From NCBI RefSeq assembly GCF_964355755.1, contig NC_092671.1:17670001-17734000 (forward strand): a stretch of 64,000 nt of DNA, given 5' to 3'. Of the stretch, positions 12,554 to 48,600 are shown one piece after another. The notes beneath the pieces were generated by a model. The model was given only the letters and a program-made list of their open reading frames with translations, was not told where the DNA came from and ran no database searches. Origin of the DNA: Antedon mediterranea (taxonomy: Eukaryota; Animalia; Echinodermata). How positions within the stretch are numbered: the first letter of the stretch is position 1; each line of letters opens with the position of its first letter. The translations under genes were made by a program, and so were the position numbers.

Positions 12554-12632
12554 ATGAAGGATTTTTTATTGTACATGCTATTATTAATGTGCTTTCTGAA
12601 TGGCTTTGCTAGACGTCATGGAGCAAATAAAA
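12554..12632 (+). CDS. EGFR: EGFR exon 1A, signal peptide [26 protein letters not shown]
   Basis: ATG, hydrophobic core and G-F-A cleavage-type site, then a phase-1 donor A|GTAAGA. Joining to exon 2 gives K-T-C-V-G-T (human EGFR has KKVCQGT). Confidence 0.8.
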
Positions 12633-18600: not shown

Positions 18601-21600
18601 GTATTAAAAACATTAATATAATGAGATGGAAATCTGCAACGGAAAACAGCAGAAGGAATGCTGTATGTCAAAGCGTTTATATAAGCTCCTTGTTGCTAGG
18701 CGATAATAACTTACGTAACAAAAATAACTGAAGAAGATTAACTGTGAATTAAGTAATTGCTATTTCTTTTTTGTTTGGATAGCGGTCATGACTCCCATTA
18801 AGTAGTAGTCATTGAATTGATGTATTTGTTGATTATTTGATTTCCCCGACGCTAAATTAGCATTTTTTTTTTAATTCAACAAGTATAAACAGCGGACATA
18901 TAAGATATTATGATACATAACTGGATTCAGTCAAAATATTGCCTGGTTAATGAATATCTTTACAAATTAGACATGAAAAATGTCATCCTTAAGGCTTTTG
19001 CGTAACCATAAACACATAATATGTACTGTTCACTAGCAAACGCCTGCGCTAAGTTTGCTTGCGTCATTGGCAGGAGCCACACGTCTTGTGTGCCACATTC
19101 TGCTGAGATGTTTTAAAGAAGAATTACATCATTTCACTTCCACTTTTATAGGACATGCATTAATGACGTTAAATCCTAATAATATCCAGACAAAAGTAAT
19201 TTGAATTGCTGATTTTAAAAACATGGTTTTAGTTTTTTTACAGACATGTCCAATTTCTTTACTGCCTTTCATATAAATAATATATTTAGCAACATTTAAT
19301 TTTTATTGAAAATTAATCAATTATATTGTAATTACAAAATCATCAATTCAATTTTATTGCATACATTTTTACAGCTAGCAAAAGGGCAATAGACATACGT
19401 GACCTAAACAATGATTTCTTATGGATACAAAACTGATGATTATGATACTTAAGTTTGAAAGGAAGACAGTTGCTTATTTATATCAAAGCATGTTATAATG
19501 TTAGTGCTTTAGATAGCAACTTGTACAACCTACAGCTATGTATTTAATCAGTGTGTAAACTACACTCACCTCTGTGTAGTAATAAGCATAAATTAACTTG
19601 TCATTATGCCTGACTAGAAATAGTGGTGATTTGATACTAGTGTCAATATTTGAAGATTCAACAATCATTCATAATTATATTAAGGTTGACTACTGGTGTC
19701 TATAGTATATACCTGTATCAATTTACGTAAGGGCAGAATTCAGTAAATCGCGTATTACTACTAGAATGTTTACTCGATGGTATATTAAGTTGGTTCGTAA
19801 TTTCGGTACTGAATTTAACCACCTGATGTAACCCTGTTTGCTATTTAAATTGAGTTAGATAATTAGTTATTGACAATTTAAAAATTAAAACTACATTTTA
19901 TTAATCCTTTAATTACAAAAATATAAACGTTGTAGTGGTGTATACTTTACTATTTCAATCGACTATTTGTGTAAATTTGACTCAAACATTTCTCTTTTGG
20001 AAGTAATTTCACAGTTTCAACAAAGTATTAAATCGCAATGTTTTTCTGTGTTTAGTGGTATATCATTTGTAAAACATGAAAACAATTAATATTTATTTTG
20101 TATTTTTGTATTAATATTTGTCCTCAGTGAGGACAAATATATATTTTGTGACTGAACGAATAAAGAATACATAAAAAAATTGTTCTACTTTGCATCCATC
20201 CTTTTCCCCATCCCTCAACCCTAATGTTACATGCAAAACACAAATTGGGTTTGATTAAATTTGACTCAAACATTTTGACTCATTTTGTGACTTTCTCTTT
20301 CGGAAGTAATACCCAGGGTGCTAATTTTAGTTGACTACAAAAATCACCGTGTCTATTTTTCATTCCTGTATACGACATGTATTATTGTCCTGCGGTACAT
20401 ACAATTGATATTGCCAGTTTTTTTATGGTGAAATTATACTATGTATTTGTGGGCACGACCTAGATGGTACATAAGCAAAACGAGAATATTTTTTTTCATT
20501 TCAACTTCTATGTATACTTAAAGACTACAATTTATTTATAGGGATTTTTGTTTACAGAAAATTAAAAGGTCACTGCTGTAGAGGATAACATGATCAACAT
20601 TTAAACGTAGGCACACCCGATGAAATACATTCTTCCATGAACTGCCTACAATTCTTTCATTTGTACTATTGATAATTTCTCTCGAATTTCATTTATTTCC
20701 TTGAGTAGTATATTTATAGGTATTTTTTATATGTTTTTCTTTTGTAAATAGAGCAAGTACTGCATATACAAACACAATTTAACCAATATTCTTCCTTTAA
20801 AGGCATCTGAAAACTTATAATTGTTTCATTTCATCTTCTACGTATACAGACTACAATTTTGTTATTTAATATGTTTTTATTTAAATAGAGTAGCACATAT
20901 GACGTTATCAAATTTTTATTTTCTTTTAAGTTCTGTTATTTATTTGTTAATTTTGTAGCTTAAGTTAGTTAAAGACCCCTTCCCTGCAATTTTGGACGTT
21001 TTTTGGAAAATAATACATATATATCACTTTAAAAACATTAAACCATGTCATTCCTTGTCTTAAATGTACGTTTTATGGTAAATTATGATAAAAAGTGAGA
21101 AACAATGCACTACCTAAGTAGCTCGCGGCGATCGACCTCTCGTGGACGGTCTCAGGCCTAGCCTAGCTAGGCTTAGTTTTGTAGGCCTAGCTGGTAAACA
21201 TCGGTAACGTACGAACATCGTACGCTAGCTATATACCTAGCCTGACGTATAGTTGCTGCATTAATTGTCTTTCTATTTTTGCCAGACTCCGTTGATACAA
21301 ATTGGGGAAAACCCGGTATTTTCGCTGAAAAGTTAGGAGTCTTCCATTTGTTTTGGCTTCACGATCGATCGAAAAGTGGGCGAATTACAGGTGAAAAACA
21401 ACAATATCAATCCGCGCGCAATGCATTTTGGGATTTATAGCGGGCCGCTATAATTATTAAAATCGATTTATTTTTCACATTTTTAACCGTTTAAAGACGA
21501 AAAAAGTTATCGCAATAGGACCATATAGTATTATTTTTACATTAAATGTAGTTTGTGATCTTAAATTAGATCTAAAAAACGTAGGGAATGGGGCTTTAAG

Positions 21601-30600: not shown

Positions 30601-33600
30601 ATCAACAAAACATATTGTACCTATGTATACATAATTTATCTATGTTGTATTGTAAAACTTTTTGATTGGTCACATCAAAATATTAAAGCCCCATTCCCTA
30701 CGTTTTTTAGATGTAATTTAAGATCACAAACTATATTTAATGTAAAAATAATACTATATGGTCCTATTGCGATAACTTTTTTCGTCTTTAAACGGTTAAA
30801 AATGTGAAAAATAAGTCTATTTTAATAATTATAGCGGCCCGCTATAAATCCCAAAATGCATTGCGCGCGGATTGATATTTTTGTTTTTCACCTGTAATTC
30901 GCCCACTTTTCGATCGATCGTGAGGCCAAAACAAATGGAAGACTCCTAACTTTTCAGCGAAAATACCGGGTTTTCCCCAATTTGTATCAACGGAGTCTGG
31001 CAAAAATAGAAAGACAATTAATGCAGCAACTATACAACGTCAGGCTAGGTATATAGCTAGCGTACGATGTTCGCACGTTACCGATGTTTACCAGCTAGGC
31101 CTACAAAACCAAGCCTAGCCAGGCTAGGCCTAAGACCGTCCACGAGAGGTCGATCGCCGCGAGGTACTTAGGTAGTTTTTAAAGTGATATATATGTATTA
31201 TTTTCCAAAAAACGTCCAAAATTGCAGGGAAGGGGTCTTTAAACTAAAAATGTTTGTGTGGTATTTACAATATTTCTATAGTAAAGTCATGTTTGTGGTA
31301 TACCAAAAGTTGAGAATGTCTTTACGTTTCAATTCTCTTTCTACAACCGTCTTCTAGAATAATACTACAATTCAATCATTTTTACTTATTCATTTTAACT
31401 TTTAATTATGTAGTTATATCACTATTGGAGGAAAAGTTTGGGTCATTATTGCGAACTTAAATATACTTATTTATATATACTAAATTAACTTGATAAACTT
31501 AAAAATCTACTGTACAGCATTTATTCAAATTAATTCTGTAGCATACTTTCAAATGATCGAGTACTTTCCATTTCTCTTGTATTTGTTTACAGCTATATAT
31601 GATGATGTGTCCCAGTTATCAGTTGAAAACTTGGAATGAATTATGATTAGGCTAATGTTATATTCATTCTCATTCAGTCAATTTTACATTAGTTAAGTCA
31701 TTTACTGTGTCCTATATAATAAGTATCTCTTTGTTGCAACATCACAGGGTGTGAAATTTGTTTTTGTCTCAAGATGGTTTTTGATTTTTTTAATTGATAA
31801 ATCACCTTAAGGCTTGGTGTCAAAGTTAATTTTTTCAACAATTTTGTTTAATTATTTTAGATATGATATATGAACTGTGTCTTGTCACCGTGTGGCAACC
31901 ACTTTGTGAATGTTACAATTTTTATGTGGCCCATTTATGATATTCCTTCGGGGGTTTTGATGGACACATATCTGCATATGTACAGTATAATGTGTCCTCA
32001 TTGTTATATGTATTGGTAAATTAAAAGTAATAGGTGCACTATGAATTTTTCGTTTTCTTTTATATGGAATTTTGTTATTCTGAAATAAAGTAATCATATA
32101 GACTTATTTTTCTGGTTTTCTTTTTTTACAGCATGCGTTGGCACATCTACTGGTTTTACGACGGTGCAAAATCCGGATCAAAGATATTCAATACTCAAGG
32201 CACTCTATTCGAATTGTACATATGTAGAAGGAAATCTAGAAATTTCATACCAGCAAGATATAGACAAAGACTTTTCATTTTTAAAAGACATCCGTGAGGT
32301 GACGGGATACGTTCTTATTGGGTTGTCATATCTACCGTCTTTAATGTTACCAAATCTTCGCGTTATCCGAGGAACCACTCTTTTCGAAGGAAACGCACTT
32401 TTAATTAGTCATAATTACCTCGAAGGAAATTCAGAAATTGGGTTGCGCGAGCTCAACCTAAAATCACTTCAAGGTAAATTTTTTTTACACAGTTTTTAAT
32501 TATGTAGCAATTTATATGAATTTTTTTAGACTTAACCATTTGCGTTAGTTTCATTAAGATATTTCTTAACTTAAAAGTATTAATTAGTAGAAGTAGTATA
32601 TAATGTAACTATCATTACATATAACATAAATATGAAATTCACTGAAAATTATTATATAAGCAACATAAAGAACATAATTGCACCATACAACAAATATGGA
32701 GGTTTTAGCTATAGATTTCTATAGACTGTTGGCAATTTTGCTATCCCAAATTCCAAAATATTGCATGCTTTATAAAATAACAACTGTACACAGGCATAAA
32801 TAAATCCTAGATAGTACATTATATTAATTATAAAATATTTATTAATCATAACATGCATTCAATTATTAGTGATTTATATATTATTATGCATATTCTAAGA
32901 AAATATTACATAAATAACAAAGAAACAAAAAAAAAGAATCAATTATTTGTATTATTAAACCTATTTTTAATTATTAAATATTTTTTAATCATAACATGCA
33001 TTCTATTATAAGTTGTGATTTATTTATATTAATTACACACATTCTAAGAAAATATTACATAAATAACAAAGAAACCAAAAACAAAGAATCAATTATTTGT
33101 ATAATAAAGCCTATTTTTAATTATTAAATATTTTTTAATCATAACATGCATTCTATTAGCTGTGATTTATTTATATTATTACGCATCATGCTAAATATTG
33201 TTTAATCTTTCCATAGAAATAATTCGAGGAAATGTACAAATTGCAAAGAACAATCAGCTTTGTTTCGCAGACACCATCAATTGGAAAGATATTGTATCAC
33301 CAGATGCTAATGTTACTATAATATATGATGATGCTGTACCACGACGGGAATGTAGGTGTAATATGTATAAATGGACATAACTTAGAAAATAATAAGATTT
33401 TTTATAAAGTTGGTAAAAAAATATATCAATTATATAGATATGTGATTATGTATGCATTGTGTTCTGTAGATTTTACGTATACTTTTACAATTTACAGATC
33501 ATACTGTTTTTAAATAAATTCCAAAATATATGATATATCAAAGTGGTCATTTAAATAGATAATAAATAAGCTTTATAAAAATCATTTTTTAAACAAATCC

Positions 33601-36600
33601 ACTTTTATATGTGTTCTTGAATTTGTGTTTACTGCAAACGGTAATTTCAATAATATTACTTGGGTTGTGATACTTTTATTTTATTTGAAGGTCCATCTTG
33701 CAAAAACGCAAATGCTGGGTGCTGGGGTGAAGGCACAGAAAACTACCAACAATGTAAGTGATAAAAGAAGGTTGAATAAAATACTGTAACAAAACAAAAG
33801 AAATATGAGTGTTAAAAGATAAATACTTTTCACTGAGAACGTATCACATTGTGCAATTTAGACGAGATATCTATATATAGATATAACATGTGCAAAAGAA
33901 AACTTTAATTTATTCTTTTCAGCAATAAAAATCCATTTTTTTTGTATATAGTTGAGAAATTGCTTTTTGCCTATTCTTCCTTCTCCTTCAATGTACGTAA
34001 TTTGTCAAGACAATCAATAAAAAAATGTAGTATATAGATTGGCTGTAAGTAATTTGGATTGCACTAAAATTTAACCATAGGCTCTTACTTATTCATTTAT
34101 AAAATTTGGCAGTTTATCGATATTTAAGATTATAAATTATAACGTGAATAAAAACAATTTGATATATATTGAAATTTAGAGGAAAAAAACATATTTTTAA
34201 CCTTGGCATTTACCTGTAGGTGTTTTTTAATTTTTTTAAAGTGTCAAAAGTTATTTGTGATAAAACTTGTGACAATCGTTGTCATGGACCTACAGCAGCA
34301 GATTGTTGCCATAAAAGCTGTGCAGCAGGTTGTAATGGACCCCTTAATACCGAATGTCTCGTAAGTAACAAACATATTTATAGAGTTATATATAAATCAT
34401 ACTGTAAATTATAGAATCAGTGCTCATATTGGGAACATGATCTCATAATCACGTCGAGCATAACTCATTGGGGAAAGTTCCGTATTTTTTAGTTGTATGA
34501 AAAAATGTATCTGGACGGAATTTGAACTTGCAACCTCTTGCTTACAGGGCGAGTATCATACCACTAGACCACAGAGCCATATATGGTATTTTCACAGATT
34601 TTCACCCACCAGACACATTCTCTCGTACCACAAATGCCCTCACAATCAGTGGAGGCTTAACAAGTCAGAATAAATTCCAACAAATATTTAACTTTTAAAG
34701 TTAACTGTATAGATACGTGCAATATAATAATTATTGCGTACATATTTTAAAGTTTTAAACTACATTTAAACAAATTCCTGGGTGCAGGTGTTAATGGTTT
34801 GAATTGTTGGGGGATGGGCATTGGGTGAGGTTCAAGGGGGTGGGGGCTGTATTTGATTTAAAAATACTATTTATACAAATAAATCAATTTACTAACACAT
34901 AGGAAATTCTAATTTTGGTTGTATATTGACAATTAATTTATAAACGATACAGATGAGGAATTTCTGTGAGAATAAAGAAAAATCAACCCCAACCAAATAA
35001 TACAGAAATAAATAAGAAATCATTCTGTAGAATTTCTGTTTAATTGTGATTTAAAATAAAATAATAAATGAAATAGGCTATGAATGTTAATATTGTTATT
35101 TCAGGCATGCCGAGATTTCACTAATGGAGATGAGTGTGTCGAGTCATGCCCACCAAAATTTGTGTATGATCCAAGCAGCTACACGAATGTTCTGAACCCT
35201 AATTTTAAGTTTCCTTATGGTGCCCAATGTATCGAAAAATGCCCAGGTAAGGTTATCTGAGAAGAGATAAACTAAGCTATTAAATGTAATTTACATCATC
35301 ATCATCTTTTATTCAAGTCAGTTTTCTCCCTCTTCAAAGGGGTTACGGACTGTTGCTCTACCAGGCTGCTACACCATCTCTCCACTTCTTCTTGTCTTGC
35401 ACATGTTACTCCAAACTAACTTTTCTCCTTTCTTTCCTACTACTGTAGTACCTTCTTTCTTTCTTTACCATATCTTTCCACCTTTCACCTTTGGCCATCC
35501 TCTTTCTCTTCTACCTCCAACTTCTAAATGCCAATCTCTGTTTACTAGTTCATCTTCATCTTTTCTTAGAATATGTCCCATCCATCAGCTCCTTTGTGTT
35601 CCTTTCTGCCAGCTTAACAGCACACATCTTATAGTTGGCCTTTCTGTTATTCTCAAAATTCCTTCTTCAGTAATCTTTATGTTCGATGTATTTTTATGTT
35701 TAATTCATTATTTGGTATGTTTTATTTGTATGCTTTGTTTATTAGAAAACTTTCTAACTGACAGCGAAACATGTGTAAAGCATTGTGATGACGGAAAACA
35801 AGAAAAAGAGGGCAAATGTGTTGATTGTGATGGTCCTTGTCCAAAGAGTAAGTTTTATAGCGTAGTGGATTAATTACTCGGCAACTATAGCATTTAGCAT
35901 CTGTTTTAGCAATATATCTTCTGTCATTAGTTAAATATATGCACAGAAATTGTAAACATGTTTCAGAAATTTATTTAAACATGTACTGAAACAAACTGAA
36001 ATTTCATTACTTGTTGACTTACAATAATTATATTAAATACATTTAGCATGTGATGGACTGGAGAAGACCGAGTCATTAAACTCTATAAACTATCAACAGC
36101 TGAAAGGTTGTACAATAATTAAAAAAAACATCATCATTGGCGTGGTTACATTTCTTGGGTAAGCAATCTTAACTCTTTTAATGTAAGAAATTTTCAAATT
36201 GGTATACCAGTTTGATAAATTGAGATCAGTAAACAAAAATGGCCAAGTGGTTATGAGCACCGTTTACCAAAACTAAAGAGTTAATATCAGCATAGGTTCT
36301 AGGCCGACTTGCTCCTAGTTCTGGTGGTGGAACAAGTCTTCTCTAAAGGACTATAAACTGTAGGTCCAGTATACACACTGTTTGCCCATATGCACTTTCA
36401 AGATCAAAAATATCCCTGTGTCAGTAGGATTTACCGCCTATCTTATAGGACAATGATTAATTTACAATTGGTAATTCTTGACCATAGGACATAATTAAAC
36501 AATGATTGTCACAGAATGTATCTCACAGTGGCTAAACATAATGCAAGATTAACTAGTGTTTAATTTTACTTGACCTAAAAGTCATTAATTAATATTATTA

Positions 36601-39600
36601 TTATAATAATTACATATTAAAAGTAAAATTCTAAATAATTTTTCTAGCAATTTGAACAATAGATTAAAAATATTTTACACTTTATGTTATTCCCATGTAA
36701 GTTTATATCATTTTACCACTGTATTGCTTGGAGGTAAGATTCTTTACGTATCATATTGTGTTTTCTTTATTTAGGGACGCGCTTAACAACATACCTCCAT
36801 TGACACCTGAAGATTTGGAGATATTTAGAACAGTCAAGGAGATCAATGGCTTTCTATCGGTCCAGGCCACACATGAAAATCTTACCAATTTGTCATTCTT
36901 TGAAAATTTAACTGTCATTAAGGGGCGTGAACACTACAGGTAATGGCTATAGACATTGTCACTAATTTAAATAATTCATAGTTTTACTTGCACTTGACAA
37001 TCAATATCCTTTTTGACCAAACAACTGGTTTGCTCCAACAAAAGTCTCAACGCTTTTTGCAATTCTCTCTTGTGGTCAATTTTTCCTAGCTGCATAGATT
37101 TACTTGGTAAGGACCAAGCTAGTTTAAAAATTGTCAATCCACCATTGACTAGATCTAGATCATTTTAAATAAACGGGAGTTGGATAAGGTCCACGCTTTA
37201 ATATCACTAAGTCACAGCACAAAGGTTGGCTAATATAATCTGGGAGTAGTTTTTGCTAGTCATTGCTAATACAATTTTTTTTTTTCAATTTACAGTTTTA
37301 ATTCAATAGTTAACTTACATTGAAAACCTGTTGTATAATACATACACTATTATTTTTAAATTGATTTAATGCACAAAATCGCACTAAGTATGCCTATGTC
37401 CAATGTAAAATTTTAGGTGGAGGTACACCCAGCTATTGCCAAAAGACAAAATCCCAAACAACAAGCCTAAATAAAATTGAAATCACTATTTCATGTTTAG
37501 AAATATTTCTATTTGTTTTAATTTCATCACAAAAAGCAGCTTCTTAACTAACCATATTTTGTTTATTTTCTAATACAAAATTTTATTTCATATTATACAC
37601 GGGCCTATATGTGACACGGGCACAGCACGCACTCTTTTTGCTAACATGGATATGTGTTTTACATTTTAGTTCTACCCCAGATACACTACATATTCAGCAG
37701 ACTAGCTTACAATATCTGGGTCTGACCTCCCTGGAAGACATATCATCCGGAAATATACGTATTAGAGAAAATGAACAACTTTGTTATGTTAACAACGCCA
37801 TTATGTGGACAAGCAAATTAACTAATGCAAATGAACAGAGAGTAAGAATTGTCCGAAATAAAGTTGCTGAAACATGCAGTAAGTATTTCAAATGAAACAA
37901 TTGTTTTATCATTATTTATACTGTTTCAATAATGATATTGTTCTTTTTAATTCTAGTGTTCATGAAGCATCCTTGTCAATTATGGGTACCAATTTAGAAT
38001 CAGTTGGACTGACATCGCTTGAAAAAATTCTGAAAGGAAATGTATTGTTTCTACAAAATCCAAATATGTGTTATATTGGAGAAAGTGAAATACTGTGGGA
38101 TAAATTTGAACAAAATACAATTGAACAAAGGTTTTTTACTAGTGGCTCTTATAACTTGGGCAACTGTAGTGAGTATATTATTTACTAGCTTATCCAGAAA
38201 TGTGTTTATCACGTTAACCTGTGGGTTATTAAAGCATCGTAACTACGCTTCGTAACATTTTTATCACCACCATCATCACCCATGCACAGCTCTCACCTGA
38301 TAGTTTAAGACCGATTTAGTTTCTGTCTTTTTCGTTGACATTTTTCCAAAGTCTAGTAAAAGTTTTACAATATTCTGCAGTTTATTACATTATTTAGTAC
38401 TTTATGTTTTGCTAGTGATTACAGTGATGGCAAAATCCAGTTCTAATAGCTTCTTTAGTAACAGTAATGTTCATCTGTTCATTGTTAGTTTCCATACATA
38501 GGGTTGCATGATGTATTAGTAATACAGAATTTGTCTTTATTACATTAAAAAGAATGTAGTATTTAAAATTTGCATATAGATTTAAACAAATATAAATTAT
38601 TTGGTCATTTAGACGCAACAATCAAGCTATTGGCTATAAACCAAATGTGTAGTGTAGTGTATATTTACTACCAACATAAAAACTAAAATCACAAAATTAT
38701 TGTGAGTTCAATTGAGACATATACTATGCAGGCTACAATTGTACCAGTGTTATAATAAGTACATTTAAAATTAATTAATTAATTAACAGATGTTTACTTT
38801 ATAAAAGACATTTACTATAGATTTTAAAATAGAAAACAAAAGCAAATTAATATTGTTAGTTTCTTCATACTGGATTCAAAATATAATAGTTCACTTGTCT
38901 TGCCTTGTCAACTTAGAGAAATTGACAAAGCACTAAAGTAAATAATGACTTAACTGTAAACATAACCTTTGAAACATTATGCAAACTTAGCTGTGAATGA
39001 CGTAATATTTTTGTTATGTCATTCACAGCTAAGTTTAAAATGAAAAGTATGTTTCACATATTCACATAATCACACAGACAATGTCATTTTAATCAATAAT
39101 TACAACTAAATGAAAGCACAACTATACCAATGTATCGTATTGTCCTTCAACAAATTAGTTAATTGAAACTATTTACAGTAATAAAGTTTTAAAAAGGTGT
39201 ATAAATCAAGCAAAGAATACATTTAAAAGAGTTAGGATTGGCTTTTTTAGCTAACTTTATGTCCCAACATGAATACGGATAGAAACAATACTCTTGACTT
39301 AAATTGTTATTTTTCAGTCAGTCATTCGTTTAATCACAATGTTTTTGGTATTTAGTTCATCTCAAATTCATAGCAGTGGTTAAATTGTTGTATTCTAGGT
39401 CAAATCATTATTTGATTGCATGATATCATATGTTATGAATTCATATAATATGTGAGATAGTTTTTGTCTTTCAACAAATTCAAATTCACTTCCACTGTCA
39501 TACATCTGATTTTAAGTGTTTGAACAAATTGTTTTAGAGTATTGTATTTGTTCAACTTAGCTTTGAAATTGTTTTAGTTTCCTTGATGGAGTAACTGGTA

Positions 39601-42600
39601 TTGAAGATTTTAAATGTACAGTGTGGATATCTTTTTGGCTATTTGGCAGTAGAAGTCATAATTATTTTTTCATTGTGAAATCTTGTTTTAAATGAAGAGT
39701 ACTTGTTCTATGGTTTTGTAGTAGTAGTTGTCGTCATACCACTTCAGATCGCATTATTTTATTAGTTACCTTTTAGGAATTGAAAGTTGAAGAGCAGTTT
39801 TATTGTGATGAACAAGTGAACTAAATGGTACCAGAGTGAACTAATTGGAAATATGTTGGGTGAAAGTCATTTAATTAATTTTGATTTTTTTTTTGCAAAC
39901 AGGCATCCAAGCTTACTAACCAGCACAAATGATTTTCTTTTTTATTTCTAACAAATATTTTTTAGGATTTAATTTTGCGTTTTATTTGCAGAGATATGCA
40001 CACAAACACATATAAGAGAAGAGACTTGGATTATTAACAAACATAGCACCACACAGCTATTGACTTGGGATAGGGACTAATCCCTAGATATTGACTGGGA
40101 GTGCATGGGAATAACCCCTAAATATTGACTGCGAGTGGAGTTAATCCCTAGCTATTGACTGGAGGTGGGAATAACCCCTGGCTATTGACTGGGGATAGAG
40201 AATTATCTCTAGCTATTGACTGAGGGTGGAGTTGATCCCTAGCTATTGACTGGAGGTGGGAATAACTCCTAGCTATTGACTGGGGGAAGGGAATTATCTC
40301 TAGCTATTGACTGAGGGTAGAGGTATCAAAGTAGGGAATGACTGGTTCCACTTTGGCAGCTATGTAACAAGGGCTTTGATACATTTTGAAGTTTTATTAA
40401 CAGCTTTAGCTTCAAGGCTTTTTATGTTGAATTAAAAGAGGCTACAGATAAAAGGACTAAATCTATTATTACATTTGCATTTGAATATGAATAATAGTAT
40501 TGTGAATTCCAAAACCATTTAAATGAAAACAACAATTTTTTAAAAACTTATTTGCTAAATTTACTAACAACATTTATTAGTTTTGTTAAACTGATATTTG
40601 CTAAACATTACAATATTGTTCAAATATTAAATAATTCTGTAGCCTCTTTCAATCAAAATGTTGAGCTTTTAAAGATAAGAACACTACCACAGTAGTTTGC
40701 AAGCCATGCTTCTTATGTATACCAATTATTTAATAAATTGAAGTTCAAAAAATTTAATATTATACACAAATAGAAGAATATGATTTCGGAAAAACAAATT
40801 AAAGTGATTATTTTTATAAAGATACATGGATAATGATGGTTTTATAACTTTTTTTCTCAAAATATTTTCAAACAAAAAGAAAATAATATTTAAGCAATCT
40901 CTTTGTGTATAATTGTAACATTGAGGTTGATGAGGGAAGAGTGAGATAACATTCTCACTTTTCCCTGGGTTGATGAGGTTTGGTGACGGTTGGCATTTGA
41001 AGTGATTTTTTAAAAAAAACCACCAAAGTATGGATATGATTTATCCATATGTATATGACATGATATCATCATTGGATAATATGGAGCTTTTGATTGCGAT
41101 GACCTATGACCTACGTATTGAGGTTTCGTTGGTCATCGTTTGAACCTAGAAACCACCAAACTAGTGTCAAGGAATTGTGAGGATGCACTTCCTTGCGCAC
41201 AATTAATTAAGTTGTAAAGCTTGTTTCGCACTAGGACGCAAAGCAAGGATGTGGGTCACAACGTAAGTGAATTTACCAATCACAAGCAACAGTTTGAATA
41301 ATCCATCGCTTTGATTGATTAATTCAGTCGTGTTGCCGCTTACATCCTTGCATTGTGTCTTTGTGGGAACCAAGCTCCTTCGGTCATTACAAATATAAAG
41401 CTCCCTATTTCTATTATCAATATGGATATTTTTATTGTTTTACAACTATGTGAATTACATCTGAATCTAAATATTAAACTTTCCTGATTTTTGGGCTATA
41501 ATATTGAAGTTTAAAAATGTACATAATTTTGATAAATTCAATTTCTCCCACAAAGCATTTATGCTGCTAATACAGTAAATGTAAATTAAAAAATTGAATG
41601 TAGTGTACTATATTTTCAATTTACCGTGATTAAAGATGACTTGAATGAATTTATATGTTGGTATTTTATTCGTTTTAAAACTCGATAATAAAAGCATATC
41701 AAAGTAGAAATAAAACATGCTTGATTAAAAAGCGCTCTTCCACAAAGTCTAGATATAAAAATAATAAAAAATCATTACATTGAATTACAAATGATCATTT
41801 CCTGCAGCAGTAGACTTACATTAAATATATTGATATAGTAATTGAATTTACCTTAATTATGCAACATAGTATCAGATGTACTTCACATAGGTATGTTACT
41901 TGGAACATTTACCATTGTATTTTTATATTGTAGTGTATGCACATACATACATATTACATTATAACACACATACATAAGTTTTCTGCTGTTATTTTATTTA
42001 TATATATATATATATAAACAAATCAGGCAAAGAACATTAATTCTAAACCGCCCGGTAATATACTGAAATTTAATTAATTCATTTGAAACGATAAAGATGA
42101 GGAAATCTGTGAGAATGACAGATATATATATATATATATATATTATATAAAATTCATAAATTAGGTTTAAATTATTTGTTGTATAGAATTAGAAATTCAT
42201 CTGAATAGAAATATTTGTTTATATATTTGTATTTGTTTTGAAGTTTGATATTATGTTTGATTAATTTAATTAGTTAATGAGGGACGTGTATGCGATGCCC
42301 AATGCCAACAGATAGGTTGTTGGGGTCCTGGTCCAGAACAGTGTGTCGAATGTAAGAATAGAAAGATTGGTAATAAATGTGTTGAGGACTGTGATTATGA
42401 AAATGGGTAAGTTTCTAATAAGCTAAAAATAATATGTTACTATAACTAATTATTGTTTTTTTTTTTTCCTTGCAATTTGAAGAACTTATTTAAAGAGCAT
42501 TTATTGTTTTTCCTCGTGTTAATCTTGGTCGAAATCATATTTATTGTTTGTTTTATCTGGAGGTTAAGACATAAAACCATTTTGGCTGATTGAAAACATT

Positions 42601-45600
42601 TAAATTTTCTGCATCATCGTGTAATTTTGTAATTAAAAAAGTGTTCCTTAACTTAGTAAAAGGAAGTAAAAGTTGATTCATTTGTTGTATTTATAGGGAA
42701 TACCTTGCAGAAAACGATACATGTAAATATTGTCACGAAGAATGCGTTGGTGGATGTTCAGGGCCGGTAAGTTCCAAACTGATTGTTCAAGTTCAAGTAA
42801 TTTTTATTACGATAATAAAAACAGATAACATAGAAGACTAAAGATTGAATTTATTGTTATTTTAGGGGTGGATCCGGGGAAGAGCGCTGACATGCAGTAA
42901 TAATATTAATAGTCTGTCCAAAATAGATAATAATAATATCCTGGATTTATATAGTGCCTAATGTTGTGAAACCTCTAAGCACTGAACAGTATTATGTCAT
43001 TCATTTTTCGGTCATTTTTTGCATCAGACGTGTATGGAAACATACTCCCATAATGCTGCTAGTAATCAGCGCAATGTTGTGTCTTGATATCCAAATGTAG
43101 TTAGGTATATGTTATTTTAGCTGTCAAAGAGGGACCCCAATGCTGCCCAACTGGATCCATCCATGTATCTATATAAATTATGGTTAATTCTGACATAGGC
43201 GAGCACAATGCAAAAACTTCGGTACAAATCTCCGCCTTGGATACCTACCTTATCTATCTCAGATGTACCGCAAAACGTAGATTTGATAACATTAGTTTTC
43301 AGTTCGATATTACAAAAGAGTTTTTTAACAAAATTTAAGATTTCAACAGTAGATTTTCAACTCAATTTCAATTCTTCGCGGTCAAAGTAATTTCCGGGTT
43401 TACGATGAGTTCACCTTGCAACAACCTGGTTTCAACTATCTTCTCTCTTTTATACACAAGGGAGCAGTTAAAATAATAGTATAGATTTGACCCTAAAGGT
43501 GACTGGAAACAGGCACTTTCCATCAATCAATACAGTGTCTCTTTGGAAGACGAAAACAAATCAGATAGTAAGACTGGGGCTTAAGTTGGCCATTAGTTAT
43601 AGCCATTTCAGTTTTTTGTTTATTTTAAAAACGGACCGCGCGTGTGTGAAGGTAGAGTGGTTAAAAATAAAATTTATATTGCAAATTAATAAAGATGAAA
43701 TTAAATATACGCCATAAAGAATCGGAATATATTGTGGGAAATAGTATTATAAAATTACATAGGGAGATTTGATGATAAGACATTTTGTTTAAAATCGAGT
43801 GAAATCCCGATAGCTGAGTTTTATTGAGTAAGCTGGCAGGAATAACTGTAGGCTATCTCCCTGTGTCCCGTTAGGACCGAGATGTCTGCCCGTGTTGCAA
43901 GCCGTAATGTCTTCTTTCTTGGGCCCACTCTGTCACGGCAGTTAGTTTCAAAAGATGTTTAAATTAAATAATGTATTAATAATTATTAGGATGGTATTTA
44001 TTTGAATAAACCCCTCTCCAATAAAACATCACTTTGAATAATAATCCCCCCCCCCCCCAACCCAACTATCTGATAAACGTCCATCCACATTTATAATAAC
44101 ACAATTATACTATTTGTAGTAGAATTCATCGCACTGTTATCTACAATATACCAAGCATTTGTTATTCTTTTTTACCACTTTTCATATCTATTAGAGGATT
44201 TCAAAATTGCCTATTCAAAATATGAATAATTAATCTTCATTTTACATGTTTTAATACATATATCTTTAACATACATTTGTGGTCTTTTGTAAACAGGGTA
44301 ATAACAAATGTGATGGATGTAAGAATTTCAAAGATGGACCATTTTGTGTGCCAGAATGTCCTAAAGTGAAGTATAATGATTCATATACTTGTAAATCTTG
44401 CCATGATCTTTGCATTGAAGGGTAAGTATTTTTTATTTTATTTTATTCAATCGAAACCAACAGCGATAATTACCGCCACTAATGCAAACAAAGCCAGGAC
44501 TGTGTAAAGCACCTTGATTGGTCCTAACATTGATCAAGGGCTTCTCTCGTCCAGTGCCCACCTTGACCAGAGGAAAGGCATATACCAAAACGTCTGAGGC
44601 AGATACCAGATGAGGGGCTGCCATAACTTTGGTGATCTGACGAGAACCGATGTTTCAACGTGGTAAAGCCGTATAAGTATATAAGTGTAATTTGGTTTTA
44701 ATGATACATATATTATAATATATATCACATGTGATACAGGCGTGGCATATGATACTGGACATATAATAATAATAATAATAATATCCTGGATTTATATAGT
44801 GCCTAATATTGTGAAACCTCTAAGCGCTGAACATTTTTTTGGGATCAAACAAGTATTCAGCTAGTAATCAGCGCAAAGTTGTGTCTTGATCTAACCGGGT
44901 TCCCATTTATACACCTGGGTGGAGACAGGCAAACATAAGTAAAGTATCTTGCCTAATGATAATGCCATATGTAGCGATTACAGATGATTATTATTAAGAT
45001 TATGAATACAGAGGATCGAGTGGATATTATGAATATGAATAATAATTTTCTTAACAGTTGTAGTGGACCTTCAAATACTATTGGTGAAAACGGCTGCCAT
45101 GCCTGTGCAAAGGTTAAGGTACAACAAAGACAAAAATTGGTAAGTTATAAATATTAAGGATTTGTTAAAATACTGTAGAACTCCCATTAAAGCCGATTTT
45201 CCACTAGATAGGCGAATTTGTTCGCGCGAATCGAAAGCGTCATGCTATGCACATGCGTATTCGCGTTTCTGTCTGTCATACTGCCTTCTTCGACGAATTC
45301 TAGTTCCTTTGATTTTTCGCTTCAGCGAAATTTACTAGTTCGAATTGTTTCTACTTTTTGCGAAGCGAAATATTGCGCAACCAATCAGAGCTCAAGAAAT
45401 GAGATATGACGCTTTCATGAGCACTCATGCGAATGGAAATGCTCAGCAACCACGCGAGGAACATGAACGTCGCAGCTATTCGCTCATGTACTGGAAAGAG
45501 AGTAGGCGATTTTTTCTCTTCGAAATATTGGATTCGCGCCAACAAATTCGCCTAGTGGAAAATCAGCTTAAGGGGACACCCTAGGGACCCAACAAAATGT

Positions 45601-48600
45601 TCCCTTAATAATAGGAGTGTCCCTATATTGGCCGTAATGTTGAACAGGTTTGATACAAACAAAGCCAGGACTGTGTAAAGCACCTTGATTGGTCCTAACA
45701 TTGATCAAGGGCTTCTCTCGTCCAGTGTCCAACTTGAACAGAGGAAAGGCATATACCTTTCCTCTGTTCAAGATACTTTACTTAATGTCCCCTTAATGTT
45801 CCCTTAATAGGAGTGTCCCTATATTGGCCGTAATGTTAAAACATACTATATTTCCCCTTGTTTATTTCATGAGAAATCCCCTTAATAAAGGTATCCCTTG
45901 AATAGTGCTCCAAAGGAGGGGATCTATTGTAATAATATTTATTTTGTCAACAGGAGTGAGAATAGACTAAAGCAAAAAGATTTTGCACTCTCCCCATTGT
46001 ACAGTAAACAAACAGTACAATAATATACAACAAAATTAAACAAAATACAATAAAACTATAAAACTATACATTACAAATTTCATTGCTTGGAATTTGTGCT
46101 TTCGTACATGATTGTCAATTTTCAATCCTCCTTCATGATACTTGATTAACATTTAAATTGTTTTTGGTTACTGAATTCAAAATCTGTTATATATTTTCTA
46201 AATAGCACTTATCCTGTAATTTCTAGTTTCTAATCGGATATTTTTTTTTTCAAAATTAACTCATTGTTGAACGTTATCCCGATATTTTTCTATAGCATGT
46301 TTGTTAAGAAAATAATTTGACAATTTAATATTATTATTATGCTTTTAGATTGAGTGCTTACCTGGTGGTGCTTTTGGTATCAATACAACTTGTGATGAAG
46401 GCTTTTATTATGAAAGAAGGTCACTTAAGAACTCTGATACAGTAACTCAGGTAATTCACTACAAATTAGCTTTCTGATCTAAGCACAATTGTATAATAAA
46501 CATATGGTTAGGCTACTGTGGATGGATCAAATGGAGTGGGGTGGTGCAGCCAATACGGTAATGCAGAGGCCTGAGGCCCATGGTCTGAACCCTAAGTGCC
46601 CCTGCAACGCTGGAGGCCTTGAACGTTTTCAGCCTTTTTCAACTTATTTTAAAGCTGGTTGTTTCCTCTGGGTCCATAGCCGTTACGCCACTGGGTGGAG
46701 CTACATTTACTAAATGAAACATCAAATTGCGATGTATATGAGGTGGCGGAAAGTAGTCAAAGTCAAAGTACTGTATTGGCAAGAATTAAACATGAAATGC
46801 AAGACAAAAACAACAACAAAATGTTGTGGCCTAGGCTTTAGATTTATCAATCAAGCAAGTTTATAAAGAAGCAATAATAATATTAATAATAATAATAAAA
46901 ATAATTTGTTTAAAAAACAACATCTATATTACACAACATCAAAGACCATCACGAAGCCAATGTTTTCTCACCAAGATGGCGGCTTGCTAAGTACTATGGT
47001 AAAAATGTAACGTCAGTGCAAACATTCCTTTGAAGAATATTTCTCTATTGATTTTCTATTGAATCTAATATTATTAAACTGACAGACAGCAATAATGAAA
47101 GGTATCTTTTTTGTATTAGGTTTGCCAAGAATGTCACCCAGAGTGCCGCAACTGCACTGGGAAAGGCAGCTATAACTGTGATGTTTGCAAGAACTTCAGA
47201 CGTGATGACCAATGTGTTCCCACATGTAAACCCGATGAATATTATGATGAGGCGTTTGAATGTCATCAATGTCATACACATTGTAAAGGAGGCTGCAATG
47301 GACCATCTGCATCTGAATGCAAAACTGACTGCAGCAAGTACAAGATAGATACTGGTGATGGAAAGGTATATTTGTATTATGTAATTAGTATTATGTAGAA
47401 CCCCTTTTCAAGAACCAAAAAAGTCTCCCTCTGAATAGAAGGTGGCTGTAGTGTATAAAACATATATTGCCCCTCATTAATTTCACATAAAACTGGGGAT
47501 ACAGATACTATGTATTCAACATATTTACAAGGATAACCTTATTATCATTAGTCGCTATTTCTCTACGCTATGGATGTTTATATATTATTTAAATAATAAG
47601 GTTTTAGTAGGATTAATTGATATTTCGAAATCAACAAGATTTAAGGTCTCTGATCTTCATGTGTTTGGAGGCAATATATGCTTTCAAAAGTGACAATAAA
47701 AATATCTAGTATCAAGAACAGGTAGCTATTGGGCATCATAAAATACATGCAACCAGTGCCCAGAGGAGGGCGGGGGGGGGGTGTTTCACTCTTAAATATT
47801 TTCATACGGGGAGGTGCCGCATTTACGGGGTATATTTTGGTGGTGAATTTAATAGTCTCTTGCCCGTCCACTTTTAAAATGTCACAATTTATCCCACAAT
47901 TTTAGCAGGGATTATAGCTATACTGAATGCTAAGCCAATCGCTAAATGAATCCTACCTTTGAATCAATGAAAACTAGTTGCTTATGTTATTGCAAAACCT
48001 TGTCACGAACAGTTCCCCTTTTGCTGGGAACTAGTACAAATATTGCGCCCTATCTGGCGTGGCCTTTTTCATGTCGCCTTGGGAACCAGTGTCATTCCTT
48101 TGTATTAAATCAATATATCATATTTTTTGTTGAGCATTTAAAATATTTCTTTTCAGTTTCTATGTGCATCAGAATGCCCTGTGGACTACCCATATCAAGA
48201 TAGGCCGTACCATTGCATATCCAACTGCTCAGAAAACATGTTTGCAAATGAAAAGTACTTTTGTCGACCTTGCCATGACGAGTGTTTTGCAGGATGCTTT
48301 GGTGATCAGCGAAAGGATTGTGTGCAATGTAAAAACGTGATTCATAATGGAGAGTGTAGGAGTGCTTGTCCCAGTGGAACTGATATGAATGAAAATAATG
48401 TTTGCAAAACTGTGTCAATGCCAATTACAGGGCAAAGCACCAATCAACCAAAGTGAGTTTTAGATACTAAAATTAATCAGACAATTATTAGTAGAAATAT
48501 AACTTTTTTAGCCATTATATTTATTTGAGATTCATATGATATTGAATTAAATTTTCTGGCTTTTAATATTTTGCCTTCAATTTCTTTTCTTTTTTTTTCA

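Follow-up and report, generated by a model that had tools for sequence, protein, structure and literature searches.

A single EGFR gene of the crinoid Antedon mediterranea carries two tandem, homologous versions (10a and 10b) of one ectodomain exon, and both are real and expressed, each being joined in RNA to exon 9 on one side and to exon 11 on the other. With one or the other copy spliced in, the gene would encode two full-length receptors that differ only in this segment, which forms the C-terminal part of domain III. We consider it fairly probable, judging from the residues exchanged, that these two isoforms differ in ligand response or ligand preference. Two versions of the same segment recur in other phyla, probably independently, which goes beyond anything proposed in an initial annotation of this DNA.

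Within the window (the whole stretch of DNA that was analyzed, 64,000 nucleotides long; all coordinates below refer to its forward strand, on which all of the exons described are read), the gene spans positions 12554 to 63222, beginning with one of its alternative first exons and ending with the stop codon. It corresponds to the RefSeq EGFR of this species in an exact, letter-for-letter match. The ectodomain has the L1-CR1-L2-CR2 arrangement and is followed by a transmembrane helix and a tyrosine kinase, the architecture of the EGFR/ErbB family; the protein matched at 100% by exon 10a (P0001, RefSeq EGFR-like isoform X2, Antedon mediterranea) contains domains PF01030, PF00757, PF14843 and PF07714, and the best match with a solved structure is human EGFR (E = 6e-273). 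Isoform X1 is present in the window as 29 exact exon blocks, from residue 30 onward, and the first exon that it shares with isoform X2 is absent from the window. Three further sources of isoform diversity were observed along the gene, namely an alternative, signal-peptide-like first exon used in isoform X3 (12554 to 12632, approximately 19.5 kb upstream of exon 2), an alternative acceptor immediately before the transmembrane helix (at approximately 48620) that makes isoform X4 four residues shorter, and a tyrosine-containing cassette exon of 30 codons in the cytoplasmic tail (61605 to 61694) that is skipped in isoform X5. High-copy repeats, with contig depths thousands of times the single-copy level, occupy introns at approximately 42900 to 46100 and 34400 to 34700, and a related repeat element is found in opposite orientations at approximately 21200 to 21400 and 30850 to 31100.

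Exon 9 (36776 to 36939), common to both isoform types, encodes the middle of domain III (L2) and can be spliced from its donor to either twin, in phase 2. Exon 10a (37670 to 37878; 209 nt; isoform X2) encodes the C-terminal part of domain III with a polar, arginine-rich ligand face, and exon 10b (37957 to 38168; 212 nt; isoforms X1, X3, X4 and X5, or P0002 to P0005) encodes an alternative C-terminal part with an uncharged ligand face. Between the twins is an intron of 78 nt (37879 to 37956), the shortest gap in the gene (all others are approximately 170 nt or more), and exon 11 (42274 to 42406), again common and encoding the beginning of cysteine-rich domain IV, can follow either twin, in phase 1. 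Adjacent, homologous, similar in length, equal in phase and 78 nt apart, the two exons have the properties of a tandem duplication. The initial annotation had described them with these coordinates, lengths, AG and GT ends, open frames and phases (2 in, 1 out), all of which we recovered; its estimate of about one-third identity is borne out at the protein level (23 of 70 columns, 33%), and the invariant motif residues that it listed are present. The contrast that it drew between a basic 10a and a hydrophobic 10b holds at the ligand-facing positions but not for the charge of the whole exons (0 for 10a and -4 for 10b).

DNA contigs of sequencing runs X2 and X3 (run labels, not isoform names) cover positions 36346 to 40173 unbroken and with zero or one difference, although the window itself may derive from these runs; the duplication is therefore not an assembly artifact or mis-join. 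A profile search of the window found no third copy of the exon, the sole other strong match being the homologous L1 exon; tblastn revealed no tandem twin of any other exon of the gene in the window, and a simple scan of intron 9 found no micro-exon. In the intron after 10b we observed a near-perfect inverted repeat of 23 bp with an 8-nt loop (38983 to 39036), probably a small mobile-element remnant.

The automated RefSeq annotation already lists both isoform types: of the five Antedon isoforms in the RefSeq cluster, one contains 10a, four contain 10b and none contains both. Direct evidence for splicing comes from assembled contigs of one RNA run from one study (run X1, possibly among the data behind the RefSeq models), the RNA type of which was initially guessed and the contigs of which contain spliced joints. 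A 267-nt contig joins exon 9 to 10a (36939>37670, GT..AG) and continues into exon 11 (depth 45.1), one of 241 nt connects exon 9 with 10b (36939>37957, GT..AG; depth 44.2), and a 59-nt contig leads from 10b into exon 11 (depth 38.2); intron contigs of the same run have depths of 8 to 11. The joints 37878>42274 and 38168>42274 appear as loose contig ends identical to the start of exon 11. All four junctions that had been predicted are thus seen in this run, with short sides of 27 to 29 letters, below the 31-letter bridging bar, as a branch in the contig graph would be expected to yield. A joint from 10a to 10b (37878>37957) is not listed among the contigs of this run (contigs lose rare forms), and the DNA runs X2 and X4 contain no splice joints. 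The either-or use that had been proposed agrees with the RNA joints and with the RefSeq isoforms; both forms occur together in this single RNA sample.

How the choice might be kept exclusive is suggested by the reading frame. Inclusion of both twins shifts the frame and leads to a stop 13 codons into 10b, and skipping of both gives an immediate stop. Transcripts with a premature stop are typically removed by nonsense-mediated decay, and transcripts containing both twins or neither would be expected to be lost in this way. The short intron between the twins may also hinder co-inclusion: the sole branch-like word in it that fits the consensus is 10 nt away from the acceptor, and because this shortest intron has no well-placed consensus branch word, steric exclusion is possible. 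For exon 10a, a candidate branch point, CTAAC, is predicted from the consensus at 37641 to 37645. A search for pairing elements that might direct exon choice returned only short AT-rich matches among the repeats within 36900 to 39400, and RNA folding of 37560 to 38330 (z = 0.44, with 12 of 20 shuffles equally good) provided no evidence of a docking/selector structure.

In human EGFR, the corresponding segment is encoded by a single exon. The initial annotation had placed it at residues of about 408 to 475, and the alignment gives approximately 409 to 475, with residues 4 to 50 of 10b aligned to human residues 412 to 456 (gapless up to 449) and residues 10 to 69 of 10a aligned to 418 to 475. 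Of the 16 domain III residues listed as ligand contacts of human EGFR in the available part of PMC11400634, the twin exon holds seven (H409, F412, A415, V417, I438, K465 and I467), and by alignment these cover four of the five residues given there as the pocket for EGF-Leu47 (L382, F412, A415, V417 and I438). Contacts V350, D355, F357, L382 and Q384 sit in shared exons, so that about half of the face is swapped; the claim that the exons swap the ligand-binding face stands for this half and fails for the rest, for example the D355/F357 site.

At positions 412, 415, 417, 438, 440, 465 and 467, 10a has D, H, Q, R, R, R and V and 10b has A, S, M, L, L, F and S (the terminal Cys serves as the anchor for 465 and 467, which are less sure, notably in 10b); the Antedon twins have none of these seven ligand-face residues in common. 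In addition, the conserved Asn at position 469 is replaced in 10b. The swap would exchange four of the five residues that form the pocket for the C-terminal leucine of the ligand (D/H/Q/R in 10a, A/S/M/L in 10b), together with the 440/465/467 rim, and would leave the D355/F357 site unchanged; the two receptors probably differ in their affinity or preference for EGF-type and neuregulin-type ligands.

The exon boundary after the terminal Cys is widespread: 51 of the 85 proteins that do not continue into domain IV read past this Cys as a phase-1 donor would give. At the other edge, an optional insert of 11 to 20 residues is found directly before the twin exon in Asterias, Glandiceps, Lingula and ticks (P0007, P0010, P0042, P0179, P0187 and P0188); in asteroids the insert is contiguous with the exon in open reading frames P0398 and P0390, which points to an alternative acceptor lying upstream. 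Splicing seems to have a general hotspot at the exon 9/10 junction, and lineages that have no twins are no exception. In one EGFR-like sequence, P0380, the entire domain III region is repeated in tandem with almost no change, either a real recent duplication or an assembly artifact.

Only one ligand, of the neuregulin type, was found in sea urchin and in Pacific oyster (the accessible portion of PMC4914847, Table 2), which weakens the idea of a switch between two ligand classes. Such small ligand repertoires are in line with an alternative in which both receptors bind the same ligands and the swap instead tunes autoinhibition, basal activity or dimer coupling, the extreme case being an ErbB2-like poor binder that serves as a partner. 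The three Arg residues on the 10a face and the replaced Asn 469 in 10b could alter autoinhibition or coupling in this manner. Fly EGFR reportedly has a direct domain I-III autoinhibition, which we counted toward the same alternative. In LET-23, ligand binding reorients domain III and brings it into contact with domain II close to the dimer arm, according to the part of PMC13416820 available. Every solved family member cited here nevertheless binds its ligand at this surface, and a change at seven of seven positions with no effect on binding would be unexpected; we regard this alternative as unlikely, though worth keeping in view.

Among the members listed, two versions of the segment occur in 9 of 21 protein clusters, corresponding to 10 species: Antedon, Anneissia, Asterias (two species), Amphiura, Diadema antillarum (whose two versions come from separate records and may be haplotypes), Apostichopus, Lingula, Mercenaria and Crassostrea virginica. 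All five echinoderm classes are thereby represented, together with the lamp shell (brachiopod) Lingula, the clam Mercenaria and the oyster Crassostrea. The flanks are identical and the differences end at the exon edges in nine of nine tested pairs (one Asterias species was left out). A single version is found, among the members listed, in the remaining 12 clusters (Glandiceps, Ptychodera, Owenia, Lineus, Watersipora, Haliotis, Biomphalaria, Mytilus, Octopus, ticks, horseshoe crabs and decapods); these represent annotation, in which absence does not equal genomic absence, and the isoforms listed cover 15 of 50 tick, 15 of 43 decapod and 15 of 22 Mytilus members (and 15 of 16 Asterias members). 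The second crinoid genus, Anneissia, has intact orthologs of both exons, which are 60% (a to a) and 44% (b to b) identical to those of Antedon, as against 27% to 39% across types. We infer that both copies have been kept by purifying selection since before the two crinoid genera split; together with the two versions in five echinoderm classes, the Anneissia pair upholds the proposal of an old duplication that was retained.

The number of duplications was approached with a tree (69 rows, 66 columns) and with quartets. In the tree, the two Lingula versions pair with each other (95/93), those of Mercenaria nest within a clade of clams (99/89), and crinoid 10a clusters with type a of Anneissia (99/91); few of the deep forks are resolved. 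Adding 14 sequences made the types within classes firmer (crinoid b with b, 91/90) but not those across classes, the only such group being a weak one of asteroid 1 and ophiuroid 1 (82/65). Quartet AU tests (28 lineage pairs, 63 to 69 columns, LG+G4) gave p < 0.05, uncorrected for multiple tests, for both shared-class topologies in 6 of these pairs, each of which includes Lingula or Mercenaria (for example, p = 0.011 and 0.010 for Lingula-Mercenaria, and 0.014 and 0.014 for crinoid-Mercenaria), a signal for separate origins that gene conversion would mimic. A single bilaterian origin of the twins is disfavored by these 6 of 28 rejections of the shared-class topologies. None of the 10 echinoderm quartets was decisive, which speaks neither for nor against a single origin in echinoderms, and none of the seven quartets with the oyster pair was decisive. 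Taken from the sequences, the distribution is probably best described by one or more origins in echinoderms and separate ones in Lingula and in clams, with perhaps another in oysters. A bolder version of the preferred reading would make the exon that encodes the domain III pocket an evolutionary hotspot, duplicated at least three times (in echinoderms, lingulid brachiopods and heteroconch clams, and probably in oysters), each time giving an animal with one receptor a regulated splice switch between ligand-tuned receptors (for example, EGF-type versus neuregulin-type); we offer this tentatively and consider it doubtful as a whole.

We evaluated whether the ligand face bears a signature of selection. 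Between twins, ligand-face residues are identical at 9 of 56 sites compared with 39 of 194 other surface (non-core) sites (p = 0.57, eight pairs pooled), which is no excess divergence, and between orthologs they are kept at 23 of 49 sites compared with 85 of 174 other sites (p = 0.87, seven pairs pooled), which is no excess conservation. Between Antedon and Anneissia, 10a keeps six of seven ligand-face residues and 10 of 26 other surface sites (a single post-hoc case), and 10b keeps only two of seven; the chemistry of the pocket differs from class to class. The ratio of exon distance to flank distance is 4.05 for 10b and 4.74 for the oyster type 2, compared with 0.94 to 2.82 in 12 single-version pairs; new function and relaxed constraint fit the fast evolution of 10b equally well. 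In lineages with a single version, too, this stretch varies more than the sequence on either side of it (the ratio exceeds 1 in 11 of the 12 single-version pairs).

This variability, the absence of excess divergence or conservation at the contact sites, and the 12 of 21 clusters with one version (among the members listed) would fit an explanation in which the twins are near-equivalent: the exon would be a convenient unit of duplication, frame shifts would make either-or use automatic, each copy would be used in some cells, and the surface would drift. Both copies have, however, been kept in five echinoderm classes, and twins turn up again in three further lineages; this is the only exon of the gene with a tandem twin in the window, and the 10a face is largely preserved between the two crinoid genera, and we consider near-equivalence improbable. 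That one copy is a pseudo-exon or an artifact of assembly or annotation, as might be suspected from automated RefSeq models and a single RNA run, is largely refuted by the continuous DNA contigs across both exons, their presence in spliced RNA at similar depth and the intact Anneissia orthologs of both, and we regard it as extremely improbable.

The closest known counterpart is found in the chordate FGFR IIIb/IIIc exons, in which a receptor tyrosine kinase likewise uses tandem exons for an either-or swap of the C-terminal part of a ligand-binding domain, and the IIIb/IIIc region is a hotspot in which splicing has changed repeatedly among bilaterians (both from the available sections of PMC5703972). 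The families and folds differ, the FGFR segment belonging to an Ig fold and the EGFR segment to an L domain. According to the same sections, the FGFR pair arose by one chordate duplication and its ligand switch and ESRP control are proven, whereas the EGFR twins appear to have arisen several times and are known from sequence and splice joints. By this analogy, the twins would be a device like FGFR IIIb/IIIc that is new for EGFR. EGFR is mentioned neither in the main text of PMC5703972 nor in its six supplementary files, and no EGFR row occurs in the Esrp-dependent tables searched. Ancient homologous either-or exons comparable to the EGFR twins are known; they are enriched in membrane proteins and arose convergently in vertebrates and invertebrates, and the main text of the study describing them contains no occurrence of EGFR, ERBB, FGFR or echinoderm. 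The TGF-beta receptors, too, show repeated independent duplication of a ligand-binding exon, but there the copies are mostly included together, which yields two-domain receptors, whereas co-inclusion of the EGFR twins breaks the frame (comparison with the accessible part of PMC13187141). Vertebrate ErbB1 to ErbB4 and the flatworm EGFR expansions also provide several receptor versions with different ectodomains, but by whole-gene duplication (available portion of PMC4914847).

The initial annotation knew of no description of such exons in EGFR, and we found none in the literature searched (from which subscription journals are mostly absent), nor in the available parts of PMC4914847, PMC5703972 with its supplements, PMC9741552 and PMC13187141. 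The animal-wide survey in PMC4914847 counts one EGFR gene in the sea urchin (in the part available) and contains no occurrence of splic-, isoform or exon; with one gene counted and splicing unmentioned there, echinoderms look like single-receptor animals. New here are the joints seen directly in crinoid RNA, the finding that the twins extend to three protostome lineages, together with evidence that they arose separately, and the negative contact-site selection test.

Echinoderms, a brachiopod, a clam and an oyster thus appear to have two EGFR ectodomains from one gene. The isoform pairs are natural swap experiments, identical except for about half of the domain III ligand surface, and they make it testable how this surface relates to ligand choice or signaling strength and whether the repeated duplication reflects selection for ligand discrimination. 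Studies of EGFR in the development or regeneration of urchin, starfish, sea cucumber and oyster would need to name the isoform. If the hotspot reading is true, then splicing reaches in these animals what vertebrates obtained by duplicating the whole ErbB gene.
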